Shown here: positions 1 through 23,201 of the stretch, in pieces
Numbering within the stretch: the stretch's first letter is position 1
Layout of the letters: the number at the start of each line of letters is the position of its first letter
Source: Candidatus Woesearchaeota archaeon
GTDB lineage: Archaea > Nanobdellota > Nanobdellia > Woesearchaeales > GCA-2687795
Assembly: GCA_002687795.1 (NCBI GenBank)
Contig: NZBG01000032.1
Location: 1-40,706 of the forward strand
Length of the DNA: 40,706 bases
Reading direction: 5' to 3'
Program-made: the position numbers and the translations under genes
Notes under the pieces: generated by a model
What the model was told of the DNA's origin: nothing
Database searches by the model: none
Seen by the model: the letters and a program-made list of their open reading frames with translations, nothing else

Positions 1-414
1 CTGAAAGCAAAAGAGGTTATCAGCATAGAAGGAGTAGGCTCTGTTAATGTTGGAACTGAAAAACCAAGGGTATTTTATTATGCAAATATCCAAAAGAATG
101 TTAAGAAGTTTTCTAACATTGGAGTAAATCCATTAAAAGAAGGCATTATAATGGGTGTAACCGGCACTATTCTGGTGAGCATGGAAAAGATTCCCTTATC
201 CTGCATATTTGCTGAGACTCATACAGAGCTGCCTGACAGCAAAGCTGCTGCAAGAGTAATTGAAACACTAGACCAGTATCTTGGCCTAAAAGTTGATACT
301 AAGCCATTACTAAAACAGGCTGAAATGTTTGAGAGCAAGATAAAAGGCATATTATCCAAGAGCCAGGAAAGCAAGGATCTGCAGGAGAAGAAGAAGATGA
401 GTTATGTAGGATAA
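1..414 (+). CDS. PAC2-family proteasome assembly chaperone-like protein, 5'-truncated by window edge
   Basis: Frame open from base 1 (LKAKEVISIEGVG...); C-terminal motif 'FAETH..LPDSKAAARVIETL..YLGLKVDTKPL..QAE.FE' typical of PAC2/PbaB-like proteins. Confidence 0.75.
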   Translation: MKAKEVISIEGVGSVNVGTEKPRVFYYANIQKNVKKFSNIGVNPLKEGIIMGVTGTILVSMEKIPLSCIFAETHTELPDSKAAARVIETLDQYLGLKVDTKPLLKQAEMFESKIKGILSKSQESKDLQEKKKMSYVG

Positions 415-439
415 ATGCAAATCGGGGATTTGCATTTAT
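411..439. repeat. 13-bp perfect inverted repeat with 3-nt loop, overlapping the stop codon (terminator- or REP-like)
   Basis: ATAAATGCAAATC-GGG-GATTTGCATTTAT. Confidence 0.8.
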
Positions 440-440
440 T

Positions 441-705
441 TCCTCCCCACTATCATAGAACTTCTCGCGTGTCCCACCCCTAACAACTGGTTTAGCACTC
501 GTATAACTATATGAATGGTGCTTAGAATATCTCCCAATTCGCACAACTACTAGAGGGCCCACCCCATCACGAGTATTGTTTACTCGCAGAACTGATAAGA
601 AGGTGTTGATGTTTTTCTTGAGTGTCCCTCCCCTAACAATAAGAGTCGCACTCGCACAATTAAGTAGAAAGTGCTTGATGTTGCCAACTAATTCTAAGAA
701 CTACT
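441..705. repeat. Three-unit degenerate array CCCWCCCC-N16-ACTCG-N16-GTG in a convergent intergenic region
   Basis: Anchors at 473/497/518, 558/582/603 and 626/650/671 with identical internal spacing; partial fourth C-run at 441-448. Confidence 0.75.
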
Positions 706-1315
706 TAGTATCCCCAAGCCCCAGCTCAGGCCATAATGTTCCCTTCTCTCCCTCTGGGAGATATACAGGTCTCTGTAGGTATGTTTTGATAGCTTCCTGG
801 AACCTGTAGGAATACCTGTAAAGCTCTAGCTTAAATGATTCAAGCTCTTTCTTGAAGATTCTCTTATGAAAAAGCTCATTAAAATTCTTTAAAAACGGAT
901 GGTCTCTCCAGCCGGTGCCGCATTCATGCTGCCAATCCATCTCCAGCCTTGACTCAACGATTATTTCCACTTCTCCCCAGTTTGTGTCAAACTTCTGCCC
1001 CTGGTGCATAACCTCTGTTTTCCTTAAATAAATAACCTTAAAATTTACATTAATTATATACCTATAATACTTATCAACCTCCTTCTTAATTCTCCACCAG
1101 ATCATTACCTCATCCCCCTTCTTTGGCTTTTCCCTGTTTAGGTAATAAGTCTCAGGGAAATCTACGCTGGACCTGCTGACAAGGCCTTCTTCAACAAGCC
1201 AATGGTACATCATCCTATAGAGAAGCTTGAGGTGAAAGTAATCCCTATGCTTAATCCTGAATCTTGCTGCTGGCAAGAATATCCTATCAGAGAAAGTATG
1301 TTTTAAATCAACCAT
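701..1315 (-). CDS. Hypothetical protein (204 aa)
   Basis: Long ORF, ATG start, genome-typical codon usage, AT-rich TATA-like sequence upstream; no recognised motif. Confidence 0.75.
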   Translation of the reverse strand: MVDLKHTFSDRIFLPAARFRIKHRDYFHLKLLYRMMYHWLVEEGLVSRSSVDFPETYYLNREKPKKGDEVMIWWRIKKEVDKYYRYIINVNFKVIYLRKTEVMHQGQKFDTNWGEVEIIVESRLEMDWQHECGTGWRDHPFLKNFNELFHKRIFKKELESFKLELYRYSYRFQEAIKTYLQRPVYLPEGEKGTLWPELGLGDTK

Positions 1316-1478: not shown

Positions 1479-1994
1479 TTGTCCCAAAAAGAGGAAAAAA
1501 GGCTGCAAATAGAGAAATCTTTCTTAGTTCAGAATAGAGACATCCTTTTGTCAATTCTAAAATCACTTTCTCCTGAAGAAAAAAAAGAGATTATATCTTC
1601 ACTAAAAGAGCAGGTAAAAGAGGAATTCACTGTGCCTATATCTGTTTTCAGGAACAATAAGCTCAGTTGCCTTGAAACAATCGTGAAATACCTAAAGGAG
1701 AACTATGATCTTAAATTAATCAAAATATCAAAGCTTCTTAACAGGAACAGCAAGACAATCTGGGCAACCTATAACAAGGCGGCAAAGAAATTAGCTAAAA
1801 GATTCATTGCTAAGGAAGAAAATATTTCTATTCCTCTATCAATCTTCAAAAGTAGGAAATACAGCGTTCTGGAATCAGTTGTTGGCTATCTCAAGGAAGA
1901 GCATGAGCTCTCTTATCACCAAATCTCAGAATTACTGAACAGGTCTTACAGAACTATTGCCACAGTTTATAGAAGATACAGGTTAAAGAAATGA
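1479..1994 (+). CDS. Protein with tandem helix-turn-helix repeats (sigma-70 region 4-like), putative regulator
   Basis: Two internal repeats 'IP.S.F...K.S.LE..V.YLKE...L....IS.LLNR...TI...Y'; stop overlaps the next start (ATGA). Confidence 0.7.
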   Translation: MSQKEEKRLQIEKSFLVQNRDILLSILKSLSPEEKKEIISSLKEQVKEEFTVPISVFRNNKLSCLETIVKYLKENYDLKLIKISKLLNRNSKTIWATYNKAAKKLAKRFIAKEENISIPLSIFKSRKYSVLESVVGYLKEEHELSYHQISELLNRSYRTIATVYRRYRLKK

Positions 1995-3244
1995 AAAACA
2001 AGAACAGATTAGGAATTGGAATGCTCTTGTCAATATTAGTATTATTGATATTTATACCTTTAATCACGTCTTTCTCCGGAAATAACTCAGGGTATAGCAT
2101 ACCTATTGGTTATGAAGGCATAGGAACTGGCGTAGGAGAGAGTATAGGAGGGGTTTCTGTGCCTATAAAGAAGTTTAATGTTGACAGGGATTTACTGAGG
2201 GCTGAATTAAAACAAGGAGAAACAAAAAAAGATAGTCTTGTTATAACCAATGAAGGGGAAACTATTCTGGCATTTAGTATAAATGTAATTGGCTTAGAAG
2301 ATATGATTCTTGTTATGGAGAATGATTTTGTATTGCTGCCTGGGGAGTCTAAAGAAATAACGGTATATCTCTCAGCCAGCGAGAACCAGCCTATAAAGCT
2401 ATACACAGGCAAGCTGCTGGTTACAGCAAACTATGAGATGAAATTGATTGCTGTTATTCTGGATGTCACAAAGAAAAAGCCATTGTTTGATATCAACGCC
2501 AAGGTCCATAATGTCACAAAGAAGGTGCTGAAAGGAGAGGATGTTGAGGCTGATATCACTATGATAAATGTAGGAGATTTCAAAGAGATTGATGTTACAT
2601 TGCATTATGCTGTCCGGGATCTTGATGGAAATACAATCAATTTCAGGGAAGAGACAATGGCTGTAAAAGAGAAATTGTCAATCGCAAGAAGGCTAAGGCT
2701 TCCGGAAGATATTGATTATGGCACATACCTGTTCTATGCTGAGGTCAGGTATGGCAAAGAGAAGGCAATGAGCACTGATGTGTTCGAGGTTGTTGAGGTA
2801 AAGCCTGTTGTGGAAGTAAGGAGGTTTGCAAGAATATTAGACTTTAGAAACTATATCCTGATCATGCTGCTGACCATAATATGCATATTGCTGGGAACAA
2901 TAGCCTATAAATCATCCAGGATATTCATGTTCAGGTTTAGGTATAATGAGTTAAAAAGGGAGACAGCTTCATTAAGCGAAAGGAAGCTTGAGATCAAAAG
3001 GAAGTTCAGGCAGCTAAGGAGCGTTGAAGAAGGAATAAATATAGAGAGGTTCAATACTTTGCTATTAAACATAATTTCGAATGTTAAGGAGAACAGGGTG
3101 GATGAGGAAACCATCAGCAGGTATAATAAACTGGTTGATATCTATAACAAGATAAGGCCCAGCAAGATCAGGAGGAAGGATAAGCTTGAATTGTATAGAA
3201 GAGTTGTGTGGATAAGAAAATATTTGATGAGGTATATAGAATGA
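1991..3244 (+). CDS. Secreted/membrane-anchored beta-sandwich (Ig/CARDB-like) surface protein
   Basis: N-terminal hydrophobic signal, beta-rich 'ITNEGET...F.L.PGESKEITV' modules, C-terminal TM followed by a basic cytoplasmic tail. Confidence 0.65.
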   Translation: MKNKNRLGIGMLLSILVLLIFIPLITSFSGNNSGYSIPIGYEGIGTGVGESIGGVSVPIKKFNVDRDLLRAELKQGETKKDSLVITNEGETILAFSINVIGLEDMILVMENDFVLLPGESKEITVYLSASENQPIKLYTGKLLVTANYEMKLIAVILDVTKKKPLFDINAKVHNVTKKVLKGEDVEADITMINVGDFKEIDVTLHYAVRDLDGNTINFREETMAVKEKLSIARRLRLPEDIDYGTYLFYAEVRYGKEKAMSTDVFEVVEVKPVVEVRRFARILDFRNYILIMLLTIICILLGTIAYKSSRIFMFRFRYNELKRETASLSERKLEIKRKFRQLRSVEEGINIERFNTLLLNIISNVKENRVDEETISRYNKLVDIYNKIRPSKIRRKDKLELYRRVVWIRKYLMRYIE

Positions 3245-3594
3245 ATGAAAAACAGCTTCAGCTTTTGGAATGGGTTGGTAAGCTTAAAAACACTGATAAG
3301 CTTATCGTTGTAGAGGGCGTTAAGGATAAAAGAGCTTTGGAGAAGTTCGGGATTGAGGATATTATAACCCTCAAGAAAGCAATCTATAAAACAGCCGAGG
3401 ATATAGCAAAGCAGGAGAAAGATTGCATAATACTTACCGATTTAGATAGGGAAGGCAAGAAACTGTATAAAGAGCTAAGCACAAAGCTGCAAGACCTTGG
3501 AGTCAAGGTTGATAAAAGCTTCAGGGAGTTTCTGTTTAGGAAAACAAAGTTAAGGCAAATAGAGGGTTTGAGGAAGTATTTGGAGAAGCTATAA
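3241..3594 (+). CDS. Small stand-alone TOPRIM-domain protein
   Basis: 'IVVEG.KDKRAL' and 'IILTDLDREG' TOPRIM motifs; ATG at 3241 overlaps the upstream stop. Confidence 0.85.
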   Translation: MNEKQLQLLEWVGKLKNTDKLIVVEGVKDKRALEKFGIEDIITLKKAIYKTAEDIAKQEKDCIILTDLDREGKKLYKELSTKLQDLGVKVDKSFREFLFRKTKLRQIEGLRKYLEKL

Positions 3595-20269: not shown

Positions 20270-20545
20270 ATGACAAATGTAATAGTAACAATGAAAATCA
20301 TGCCTTCTTCTCCTGATTCAGACTTAAAGGCAATAGAAGAAGAGGCTAAGAAGGAAATCTCTGAGTTTGGCGGTGAGGTTGGCAAGACTGAACAAGAGCC
20401 AATAGCATTTGGGCTAAAAGCGTTAATGCTTTACTTTGTAATGGATGAGAGCCTTGGCTCAACAGAGGATTTAGAGGAAAAGGTTAAGAAGATAAAAGAT
20501 GTTAATTCTGTTGAAGTTCCTGATGTGAGAAGGGCGATAGGTTAA
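20270..20545 (+). CDS. ef1b: Translation elongation factor 1-beta
   Basis: KIMP.SPD.DL, EPIAFGLKAL; 91 aa. Confidence 0.93.
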   Translation: MTNVIVTMKIMPSSPDSDLKAIEEEAKKEISEFGGEVGKTEQEPIAFGLKALMLYFVMDESLGSTEDLEEKVKKIKDVNSVEVPDVRRAIG

Positions 20546-20546
20546 A

Positions 20547-20565
20547 TGTTTAACTGCGTTAAACA
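20547..20565. terminator. Short hairpin between convergent genes, at the left island edge
   Basis: TGTTTAAC-TGC-GTTAAACA right after the ef1b stop. Confidence 0.5.
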
Positions 20566-20608
20566 ACATACAAATACTAAAGAAGAATATTCATAAGATT
20601 AGTTGTTA

Positions 20609-21052
20609 CTATGTTAATTCAGATGTTGCTCGATCTTTCTTTAAATCATGAGAGAATATTAAAGCAATAACTAGAAGTCCTAAAACAAAACAAATATTAC
20701 TTGCCCATGTTAGAATTGTAACTTTATTACTATATTCTTTTATTTTACCTGTAATAATTTCAAGTTCATCCCTTCTTTCTCGCCATTCTGATTGGTCTAT
20801 TTGTCCCATATTGTAGCTTAAATTTGCCATATCTATATTTTTATTTATTACAGCTTCTTTTATTGCCATTAATTTGTACCATTCAGAATATGAATAATCA
20901 TAAACAAAGTCAAAAAGGATTTCATTTTTTTTATCAAATTCTGTTATTATATTTTGATAATCATTATTAGCCAAACCACTAAAGAACTGAGATAAACCAA
21001 ATAATAAAACTAATATAATACCTAAGACTTCTGTTTTATTCTTTTTGTTCAT
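20609..21052 (-). CDS. Two-TM hypothetical membrane protein
   Basis: Hydrophobic N- and C-terminal segments flanking a helical loop; TATA upstream. Confidence 0.65.
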   Translation of the reverse strand: MNKKNKTEVLGIILVLLFGLSQFFSGLANNDYQNIITEFDKKNEILFDFVYDYSYSEWYKLMAIKEAVINKNIDMANLSYNMGQIDQSEWRERRDELEIITGKIKEYSNKVTILTWASNICFVLGLLVIALIFSHDLKKDRATSELT

Positions 21053-21144
21053 AATATCATATGAGACAAAGCTTATATAAATAAAATTAGCTTTTGTAGT
21101 ATATGATTGTAGTATGTGGCGTTTGTCATAAGAAGATACATAAT

Positions 21145-21426
21145 TTAACTTAGATTGTACGGAGCTTTGGCAATATAAAAACCGATTATCGAGCCCATAA
21201 AACCTATTAGATATTCTGGTATAGATCTACTTTTAAATAGCAATAACAAGAAAGTGATAGTAATAAGAACACAAATAATATTCCCTACAACATAATGCAA
21301 TTTTGTTAATATAGGTTTTGGTCCTAATAGGTTTTTATCATCAAAAGAAATAGTATCTATGTTTCCTGTTTCCTCAAAATCTTCTATATCATTAATCTTT
21401 TTTTTCTCGGAGATATTTTCTATCAT
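21145..21426 (-). CDS. Small two-TM membrane protein
   Basis: Acidic N-terminus then two TMs ending in 'GSIIGFY'; 6 nt downstream of the RHH gene. Confidence 0.65.
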   Translation of the reverse strand: MIENISEKKKINDIEDFEETGNIDTISFDDKNLLGPKPILTKLHYVVGNIICVLITITFLLLLFKSRSIPEYLIGFMGSIIGFYIAKAPYNLS

Positions 21427-21432
21427 TTAAGT

Positions 21433-21645
21433 TTACCTAAGAGTCAAAACACGTGTTTCTTTATTTGACTTAGGATCTCTAATAATTATTTCATTCCCTT
21501 TTTCTTTTTGAAGTTCAAGGAATTTTGTTACAGAAAGACTGGCCCTAATGACTTCAGTTATTGTTGAAGCATCTAACTTACCTTTCAATTCTTCGAGTTC
21601 TTTTTGAGCTTTGGAACTTAGTTCTATATGTATTTTTTTTGCCAT
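21433..21645 (-). CDS. Ribbon-helix-helix (CopG-like) DNA-binding protein
   Basis: 'KIHIELS....KELEELK......TITEVIRASL'; SD AGGAGG upstream of ATG 21645. Confidence 0.7.
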   Translation of the reverse strand: MAKKIHIELSSKAQKELEELKGKLDASTITEVIRASLSVTKFLELQKEKGNEIIIRDPKSNKETRVLTLR

Positions 21646-21862
21646 TTGGTCCAACCTCCTTTTTATATTTAAAAATAATATAATCCTTAGTATTTAAATA
21701 TGTTTGTATTTAAGCTATTAATGGGAGGGAATAACTACATAGTCAATACATTTAATATACATAATTAACCCCCACAATATACTAAGAAGGGGGTAAAATA
21801 TATAAACTTATTTGTTTTAAACTATAATAATTTTAGCTTATTAAATTATATATCAAATAAGA

Positions 21863-22681
21863 ATGAAGTCTGATAAAGAATTATTGAAAGCGGAGGAAGA
21901 AATAAAGAGGCTCTTAAGTGAGATTGAACATGCTTTGGGCCATGGATTAATCATTTTAGTCTATAATCCTTTAGAAAGTGGAGGCGAAATTATCCCAGGA
22001 GATAGTGATAAAATCTTTTCCTTCTTATATGGATTAAATATTCAACAAGCAGTAGTTATTATTGATGGTCCAGGAGGAAATTTTAATGAAGGAATACATA
22101 TCTCAAATATTTTTAGGAATAAGTTATCAACATACAAAACAGTTGTGCCTCTTATTTGTGGGTCTTCATTATGTTTTACAGTATTAAAATCCGACATGTT
22201 AATTCTTTTGAAAGGAGGGATAATCACACAAATAGATCCCTGCTTTGAGTATAATGGAAAGATTCTTAGAGCTATTCAACACTTGAAGGATAATGATCCA
22301 GTTATCAAAGATAAAGCTAGGGAAATTCTCAGATATGCAGAAGAACAAATTCTTAAATTAATTGGAGAAAAACCATCTTTATTCAAACATAAAAAACATG
22401 ATTTTGGATCGATAGAACATGAAAATATCGTGGAAGGCTTAATGAACAGAAAAGAACATTGTGATGAAGTAGAAAGTATTGCATTCCAATATATCCCCTT
22501 TAAAGTTCATTTTAATGATGATAAAAATTTAGCCTCTCTTTCTAAAGAGCTTATAAAGGCTATTCAAAATTATTTAATTGATACAAAAAGAAGATTCTGC
22601 TTAGGATGCAATTATGAAACAGAGGTTTTTGATGGAATAACTAAATCGACAAGGAAGGGGAAGTTGTTGTTTTCTCCTTAA
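21863..22681 (+). CDS. Divergent ClpP-class (SDH/S49-like) serine protease
   Basis: 'VIIDGPGG', 'TVVP..CGSS....L.SD...L......TQIDP' match the SPGG / VP..A.SA / GPIDP pattern. Confidence 0.65.
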   Translation: MKSDKELLKAEEEIKRLLSEIEHALGHGLIILVYNPLESGGEIIPGDSDKIFSFLYGLNIQQAVVIIDGPGGNFNEGIHISNIFRNKLSTYKTVVPLICGSSLCFTVLKSDMLILLKGGIITQIDPCFEYNGKILRAIQHLKDNDPVIKDKAREILRYAEEQILKLIGEKPSLFKHKKHDFGSIEHENIVEGLMNRKEHCDEVESIAFQYIPFKVHFNDDKNLASLSKELIKAIQNYLIDTKRRFCLGCNYETEVFDGITKSTRKGKLLFSP

Positions 22682-22956
22682 CTATTCAATGATTTGAGAT
22701 GAAAGAAAAAGAATGAAGCTAATTTATTTACCCTGCTCACCGCTTTTGTTTAACATAATGCAGCTATACTGTTCTCATCTGAACTCAAATTACTGATAAA
22801 TGTGTTTATTAAATTAGCGTCACTCAGATTCTTCTAATTTGTCTATACATGATGGATGTACCTTACAAAAATGGAGAATTAATTCACCAATAAAAGTAAT
22901 AATCACAAATATTGCTGAAAATCCAACTAAAAATAGAATATAATTAAACAATGTCT

Positions 22957-23201
22957 GCTTTAATAACCATTCTTGTCTTTTATTTCTCTTCCTGGATAGG
23001 ATTGTTGGTTCTATTTGTGAGCACAGCTGTTGGCCTAATACCTTCTTTAGTTGGTGTTAAGAAAAGCCTTACGATGGGTTGTTTGTTGCTGCCTGTGATA
23101 TTGTTTTTTGTGCTTTAGAATTCATTTCAAACTCAACACATTAGAATGCACAACAATCGCTCTGTCTCTAGTGGTCTTGAACTTGATTGAGGCTGGTGAC
23201 A
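22957..23201. repeat. 245-bp diverged direct copy of 24323-24567 (3' ends of tctA-like gene and convergent surface-protein gene)
   Basis: Ungapped alignment, offset 1366; about 21 mismatches by hand count (~91% identity). Confidence 0.95.

Follow-up and report, generated by a model that had tools for sequence, protein, structure and literature searches.

The intergenic gap behind a PAC2-family gene, in the contig of the Woesearchaeal genome analysed here, is made up of two adjacent members, A and B, of a modular intergenic element specific to DPANN archaea of the Woesearchaeales type, preceded by a hairpin that overlaps the end of the PAC2 gene. The dispersed-element part of this reading is close to certain. 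Its copies arise at new sites and disappear again within the span that separates congeneric species, and some of its sites are occupied across families. As judged from sequence, it is probable, by a modest degree of confidence, that it is a mobile, co-transcribed 3′-end or intercistronic cassette which punctuates transcripts.

Anatomy of the gap

The window, i.e. the whole stretch of 40,706 nucleotides that was analysed, is the + strand of contig C32 of a 925 kb (0.93 Mb) assembly, which consists of 39 contigs and is 76% complete; archaeal genes in the window include PAC2, aEF-2, NFACT and IF-2B. The original prediction described a 286-bp gap between two stop codons (415-700), and these are the PAC2 stop at 412-414 (+) and that of the convergent ORF 701-1315 at 701-703 (-). 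All of the sub-motifs that it named are present in the gap. Exact matches to CCCWCCCC-N16-ACTCG start at 473, 558 and 626 of the + strand, each followed by a GTG after a second N16, and none of 100 dinucleotide shuffles contained any match. A repeat search recovered the common flanks of units 1 and 3 (462-523 and 615-676, 71% identity over 62 nt), the tail pair 536-551 and 690-705 (81% identity) and the recurring submotif, the latter as a ACTCGNANAACT box at 497, 582 and 650. Independent DNA contigs from other runs span 311-491, 498-576 and 579-818 of the window, and the arrangement is therefore not an assembly artefact; no contig on 1-1600 skips a module, these contigs being short, breaking at repeats and silent on population variants.

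The exact pattern is confined to these three positions in the 925-kb assembly, and looser copies of the unit, which had been overlooked, occur at about ten other loci of the genome. Also overlooked were a perfect 13-bp hairpin overlapping the PAC2 stop (P1 in Table 1), whose 5′ arm begins at the third position of the last PAC2 sense codon and continues through the TAA stop, and two extra C-strings, CCTCCCCA and TCTCCCAA. The three fixed-geometry units are simply repeated C-string/box modules, one from the A copy and two from the B copy. Their constant internal spacing had been taken as a sign of selection on geometry; the C-strings and boxes are indeed constrained, but the start-to-start spacings are 85 and 68, and the array itself is irregular.

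Table 1. Features of the gap and of the two genes that border it (window coordinates).
Feature	Position	Strand	Remarks
PAC2-family gene, 3′ part (proteasome assembly chaperone-like)	1-414	+	Pfam PF09754, E=1.7e-18
P1 hairpin	411-439	+	13-bp perfect arms, 3-nt loop
A element	440-529	+	contains unit 1; nhmmer match 437-509, E=6e-12
A C-string 1, CCTCCCCA	442-449	+	preceded by linker TT
A box 1, TATCATAGAACT	451-462	+	
A C-string 2, CCCACCCC	473-480	+	followed by TAACAA
A box 2, ACTCGTATAACT	497-508	+	
GTG of A	518-520	+	
B element	530-700	+	contains units 2 and 3; nhmmer matches 539-594 and 617-662
B C-string, TCTCCCAA	530-537	+	
B C-string, CCCACCCC	558-565	+	
B C-string, CCCTCCCC	626-633	+	
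B boxes	538-548, 582-593, 650-661	+	
Convergent gene, 204 aa, function unassigned	701-1315	-	no Pfam family

The A element shares 86% identity with its syntenic counterpart on contig C55 of G001, a genome of the same genus, and its stretch 442-489 is 94% identical to C3:24387-24434 of the own genome (G000). In B, the stretch 531-627 shows 93% identity to own C33:677-773 and 82% to own C6:6581-6663. In G001 the syntenic gap has just a single module behind the hairpin, and the homologue of ORF 701-1315 comes next; since B is absent there, it represents an addition in the lineage of the window. No terminal inverted repeats were found in the A and B types, including both window copies.

The convergent gene belongs to a family present in 389 of the 401 genomes of the order, with about three paralogues in each, another own-genome member being at C6:6696-7214 (-). 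AlphaFold models it as a long antiparallel sheet against which helices pack (mean pLDDT 74), and a fold search gave no PDB match at E<=0.001. In G000 and G001, both paralogues lie next to an element; a specific link between the two was rejected, given a gene family in 389 of 401 genomes and an element in 18.

Beyond this gene, the window contains an HTH-encoding ORF at 1479-1994 that is 47.5% identical to a paralogue on C34, a membrane-anchored ORF of 417 aa at 1991-3244 with paralogues on C35 and C15, and a small Toprim protein at 3208-3594. On contig C18 (5893-6075), tRNA-Ala is followed by a second tRNA-like sequence, uncalled by ARAGORN, with extra letters in the T-arm region, and the orthologous tRNA on contig C3 of G001 has an insertion at the same place in the T-arm; these may be intron-containing tRNA genes.

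A dispersed family at gene ends

The genome-wide scan for the unit, which the original prediction had called for, shows that the units belong to a family scattered over about 13 loci of the own genome, as judged by blastn, regular expressions and an nhmmer HMM of the core, with a unit size of 85-190 nt. Using 400-720 as the query, blastn returned partial own-genome copies on C33, C6, C3 (two), C5 and C18, and further copies in G001 and in G024, a member of the same order. In its full form the element follows the order gene stop, covarying hairpin, short U-rich linker, CCUCCCCAYUA and GCACAAC box, then, after about 10 nt, CCCNCCCC and, after about 15 nt more, a second CACAACUAA box. The own-genome CCCNCCCC sites lie in the context CCTCCCCAYTA, GCANAAC box, CCCNCCCC, TAACAA or GACA, and the second box, of the CACAACTAA type, comes about 10-15 nt after the TAACAA or GACA. 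An alignment of 31 elements from 14 genomes showed CCTCCC.A and CCC.CCCC to be invariant while the fill varies, the two C-strings of one module starting 29-32 bp apart, i.e. about three helical turns. There is no consistent reading frame across copies, and terminal inverted repeats (13 bp, with 12 positions matching) are confined to the C12, C18 and C34 copies, which are about 90% identical. In the own-genome copy at C3:18364-18472 (-), at the ATPase proteolipid junction, about 45 nt of GC-rich sequence are inserted between box 1 and C-string 2, and nhmmer therefore splits this copy into two matches.

The pattern CCTCCCMA-N21-24-CCCNCCCC has 43 sites in 18 of the 401 genomes and 15 of the 258 genera of the order, compared to a single site for the reversed control. 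Fourteen genomes have the full architecture; on visual inspection, the single matches of the four others lack hairpin and boxes. Strict sites number 1-7 per positive genome, which is low everywhere, and no burst is seen. A stricter pattern gave 25 matches among 185,579 species representatives, of which 21 have the full architecture and are, without exception, in records titled Woesearchaeota, Nanoarchaeota or uncultured archaeon (nine of these 21 sites coincide with the 43-site order-wide set); the other four are bacterial, and all lack the full architecture. Copies were not found in viral contigs or phage records, and Rfam gave no match overlapping the array in 300-1500 even at E<=10, one tRNA being its sole match in the window at the gathering threshold. 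The abstracts covered by a literature search contain no account of this motif.

These counterparts dispose of the idea of a decaying neutral tandem duplication private to the locus, which had been named as the outcome if no counterparts existed. The resemblance of units 1 and 3 (71% over 62 nt) is what such a duplication would leave, but these modules recur, with invariant motifs, elsewhere in the genome and in other genera, which refutes it and leaves it next to no probability.

The position of the element is tied to genes. A same-strand gene ends 8-85 nt ahead of C-string 1 in 23 of the 31 elements, four follow a divergent gene and four have none, and the stop codon is placed just ahead of, within, or just past the hairpin. 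On the downstream side there is a same-strand gene in 19 cases, a convergent gene in seven and none in five. The flanking genes are functionally unrelated and often operonic, the occupied junctions including S13|S4, NTP-transferase|epimerase and UDG|ParA-like. Two junctions are each occupied in two genera, viz. RnfA|RnfB (G347 and G207) and DUF3467|DnaK (G218 and G024), where the second RnfA|RnfB case, like a DUF134|MinD-like case, rests on G207, an unpublished genome. In the own genome, the junction between atpK and atpE (V-type ATPase proteolipid, then the next subunit; names that rest on reading the translations, without a family search) is occupied, and S13-type and proteolipid-type gene ends precede elements in further genomes, according to a reading of 120-nt flanks. 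One copy in G018 lies between a TATA box and a start codon and is thus a 5′ leader there, not a 3′ end.

That copy would suit a promoter or 5′-leader cassette serving the downstream gene, in which the AT-rich linker would stand in for a weak TATA box and the GCACAAC box would be the start region, with the C-rich leader controlling translation. The 19 same-strand downstream genes, with box 2 at 6-25 nt ahead of the start codon, and a TATA-like stretch upstream of the hairpin in the own C9 copy point the same way. Such a cassette is nevertheless improbable, since seven of the 31 elements face a convergent gene, including the window and G001 PAC2 copies, the tRNA promoters of the own genome are canonical (aaNNTTTATAAAT) with no such box in the conserved core of the element, and in the C3 and C33 copies TATA-like boxes lie apart from the element, on its downstream side.

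Where the copies lie, how many there are and how they are oriented likewise speak against the suggestion that the units are sites resembling archaeal origin recognition boxes (ORBs). Archaeal origins have one to a few clustered sites per genome, commonly inverted about an AT-rich region and beside replication genes such as orc1/cdc6, whereas the array here, at 441-705, is close to the start of one of 39 contigs. The sole Cdc6_C/Orc1 match, in an assembly that is 76% complete, is at C24:6108-6374, a contig on which nhmmer finds no element copy; the element is dispersed over about 13 loci; and the window units are all direct, 23 of the 31 copies being co-oriented with the upstream gene. Of the more general idea of a phased protein-binding array, the locus-specific part has fallen away, as the geometry is that of the family modules, and binding at the DNA level survives with a slender chance. 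A DNA-level array of this kind, ORB-like or bound by a chromatin protein, would account for the G-strings on the minus strand, for C-string starts some three helical turns apart within a module and for primary sequence that is conserved without pairing. We regard it as very improbable, given an orc1/cdc6 gene on another contig without an element copy, the dispersed loci with their orientation tied to the upstream gene, and a hairpin strand bias that points to RNA.

The hairpin and its strand signature

RNAalifold, applied to the 31-sequence alignment, found the 5′ hairpin as the only structure. Helix 1 is 90% paired, against 30-40% in slid controls, and none of 500 shuffles reached its covariation score. 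Compensatory changes are present at all six scored pairs, the hairpin sequence differing freely among copies so that pairing alone is kept. Over the 45 nt ahead of C-string 1 the mean folding energy is -11.5 kcal/mol; for 400 ordinary gene ends of the own genome, used as controls, it is -3.8.

The two strands of the hairpin are not equivalent. Among 41 distinct elements, the sense strand is the stabler in 29 and the antisense strand in eight, with four ties, and the hairpins have 55 G·U pairs in the sense against eight in the antisense direction (Wilcoxon p=0.013). The 400 control gene ends, which come from the own genome only while the elements are from many genomes, are without bias (193 vs 191 for stability and 446 vs 470 for G·U pairs). 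As G·U pairs on one strand are expected from selection on RNA made along the direction of the upstream gene, this bias points to an RNA-level function of an element transcribed in that direction, and it is the main argument, an indirect one, for a role at the transcript level. We would put an RNA function at near even odds. The conserved primary sequence beyond the hairpin could equally be read on DNA.

No further pairing was detected between the C-strings and downstream G-runs, which scored 4.23 and 4.06 against 4.18 and 3.92 in shuffles and so pair no better. In a candidate GUGUC/GACAC stem around C-string 2, no more than half of the cells (50%) are paired, and a covariation of the N position that was glimpsed in a few copies failed across the whole set; both were discarded. 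The U-run behind the hairpin is usually 3-5 nt long, variable, and absent from some copies, and 411-439 is not listed in a simple/consensus terminator scan. At the level of the genome, neither hairpins after stop codons (21.5% vs 21.8%) nor the hits of a general terminator scan (19 found vs 18.0 expected) are enriched.

Several other candidates were rejected. An origin from the 3′ end of 16S rRNA does not hold, as the 16S gene of G018 ends in GGATCACCTCCT and then an unrelated spacer, with only CCTCC in common; pairing with 16S was dropped too, because GGGGTGGG occurs once in the G018 16S, but the N position of CCCNCCCC varies within G018 (a 16S gene was not found in the own genome or in G001). 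A small peptide was dismissed, the 22-codon frame across the A element being present in the window only and the other copies having no start codon. Inspection by eye revealed no C/D boxes, and no inverted R' site of the kind needed for attC-like R''/R' sites; a G-quadruplex or i-motif was set aside because the fourth G-tract has two G only.

The strand bias also bears on the proposal of a dual-spacer guide RNA co-transcribed with ORF 701-1315. That gene is on the opposite strand, the hairpin bias points to the + strand, and the family of the gene is near-universal, unlike the element. A search with the N16 fill gave no other match in the own genome or in phage and viral collections, the 16-mers not having been queried singly against viruses. 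The guide-RNA reading thus fails on strand, on the lack of a target and on the lack of a family match. Independent small RNA genes, or an array in which the variable N16 would serve as guides, might be expected to show conserved boxes with variable fill, as seen here, and some bacterial sRNAs typically have their seed regions in C-rich single strands. Even so, with no Rfam match or C/D boxes, no regular repeat-spacer period (85 and 68), fill that matches nothing else and no conserved promoter upstream of the hairpin, only a very slight probability can be given to small RNAs of this sort.

In the reading that we prefer, the element would be transcribed together with the upstream gene and act in RNA. 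The hairpin would form at the end of the upstream cistron, as a 3′-end or stabiliser structure, and the unpaired C-rich strings behind it would be putative recognition sites for a factor. Together they may punctuate the transcript, by termination, 3′-end protection or processing, and uncouple the neighbouring gene; in that case it would be understandable that operons and gaps between convergent genes alike tolerate and retain the element. The four elements that follow a divergent gene and the 5′-leader copy of G018 count against the 3′-end part of this reading. Against its mobile part count the restriction of terminal inverted repeats to the C12, C18 and C34 subfamily and the uneven length of the flanking repeats, and a mobilising enzyme was not identified. 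A more ambitious version envisages a lineage-wide RNA punctuation signal of Woesearchaeales, spread by copy-and-paste, at which a putative C-tract-binding factor ends, cuts or stabilises intercistronic transcripts; the proposed functional counterparts of the hairpin and CCUCCCC/CCCNCCCC cassette would then be bacterial Rho-utilisation or REP-stabiliser sites. This version is offered tentatively, as an unlikely but credible one.

Gain, loss and likeness to known repeats

Six of eight resolved orthologous sites differ between congeners, a count that leaves out three further sites. Constraint is suggested by the syntenic A element, which is 86% identical between G000 and G001, where genes flanking other loci are 68-82% identical. 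The own C5 element is absent in G001, where the empty site already carries a hairpin, and it is flanked by an exact 7-bp repeat, CTAAAAT. Also absent in G001 are the own C18 element, with flanks ATTTG (5 bp), and the hairpin and B element of own C33, with flanks TAA (3 bp). A second genus adds two sites that are filled in G018 and empty in G145; one of them, at the UDG|ParA-like junction on contig C4, has an exact 8-bp flanking repeat, TGTTTTAA. Flanking repeats at the five junctions are thus 7 (C5), 8 (G018:C4), 5 (C18) and 3 bp (C33), with G018:C11 ambiguous. About 70 nt upstream of the element on G018:C4, the first 27 nt of the downstream ParA-like gene are present a second time, in diverged form, and the event at that locus was therefore more complex than a simple insertion.

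Conversely, the aEF-1beta site is filled in G001 only; the window has a hairpin there, after the stop at 20545, without the C-rich core. The distance from aEF-1beta to the next gene in G001 is about 92 nt, holding the hairpin and one element. In the window, about 2.4 kb of 27-30% G+C with three small ORFs (20546-23020) lies between aEF-1beta and the next conserved gene, and is possibly an insertion island.

Sites common to G000 and G001 are those of PAC2 and of the paralogue of ORF 701-1315, the latter with different module types. The PAC2 3′ end carries hairpin and element in G000, G001 and G187, the last of these from another family of the order, and the hairpin sequences differ while the pairing is kept, a further sign of constraint.

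This pattern of turnover brings in the main rival, which holds that the element is selfish, non-autonomous mobile DNA (MITE/REP-like) with no host function, its hairpin and C-strings being recognised by a putative transposase or recombinase and gene ends being safe landing sites. The differences at six of the eight sites, the 7- and 8-bp direct repeats at two junctions, the roughly 90% identity of the C12, C18 and C34 copies with their 13-bp terminal inverted repeat, and the 93% identity of the window B copy to C33 are all as it would predict, and PMC11602168, in which MITEs are reported as abundant and dense in one Woesearchaeal genome, is in keeping with it. We consider it rather unlikely as a full account. 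The copy number is low, with 1-7 strict sites per genome and no burst, most copies lack terminal inverted repeats, and viral contigs and phage records yielded none; the PAC2 site is filled in two families, between which the hairpin has changed in a compensatory way, and the sense-strand G·U bias would be unexpected for a signal read on DNA only.

DPANN archaea are uncultivated and, to our knowledge, almost nothing is known of how transcripts are ended, processed or insulated in their compact genomes. The family described here offers a signal that is defined by its sequence and simple to search for, lies at gene ends and within conserved operons, and is still being copied to new sites. Should it punctuate transcripts, it would give a handle on DPANN gene expression and on a protein reading C-rich RNA; should it be only a selfish repeat, it would still mark recent change in these genomes, and would caution that arrays of fixed geometry in them can be pile-ups of repeat modules.

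Among known systems, archaeal ORBs have a G-string on one strand beside a partly palindromic box, a feature that the element resembles, but the element is not beside orc1/cdc6, is dispersed, all direct and tied to gene direction, and has no identified AT-rich unwinding element at its flank. The element is also like MITEs, archaeal ones included, in being small, non-coding, multi-copy and polymorphic for presence at orthologous sites, with short flanking direct repeats at some junctions and one subfamily with 13-bp terminal inverted repeats; it differs in that most copies lack such inverted repeats, the flanking repeats are of several lengths, some sites are conserved across families, and the element has no known parent transposon.

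BOX elements of Streptococcus pneumoniae and the BIME/REP sequences of enterobacteria are short, modular and non-coding, with variable numbers of sub-units; they are intergenic, often after genes or inside operons, co-transcribed, foldable, and gained or lost between relatives. The element is like them in being short, non-coding, modular, dispersed at gene ends and in operons, and gained and lost. It differs in being archaeal, in having about a dozen copies rather than hundreds, and in a hairpin that varies and is partly built from the upstream coding end. Where REP and BIME have a conserved palindromic unit, the element keeps the pairing of its hairpin and not the sequence, and its conserved part is an unpaired C-rich tract instead of a palindrome. 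It is, then, a small dispersed intergenic repeat, unusual in joining an unpaired, invariant C-rich core to an RNA-type strand signature.
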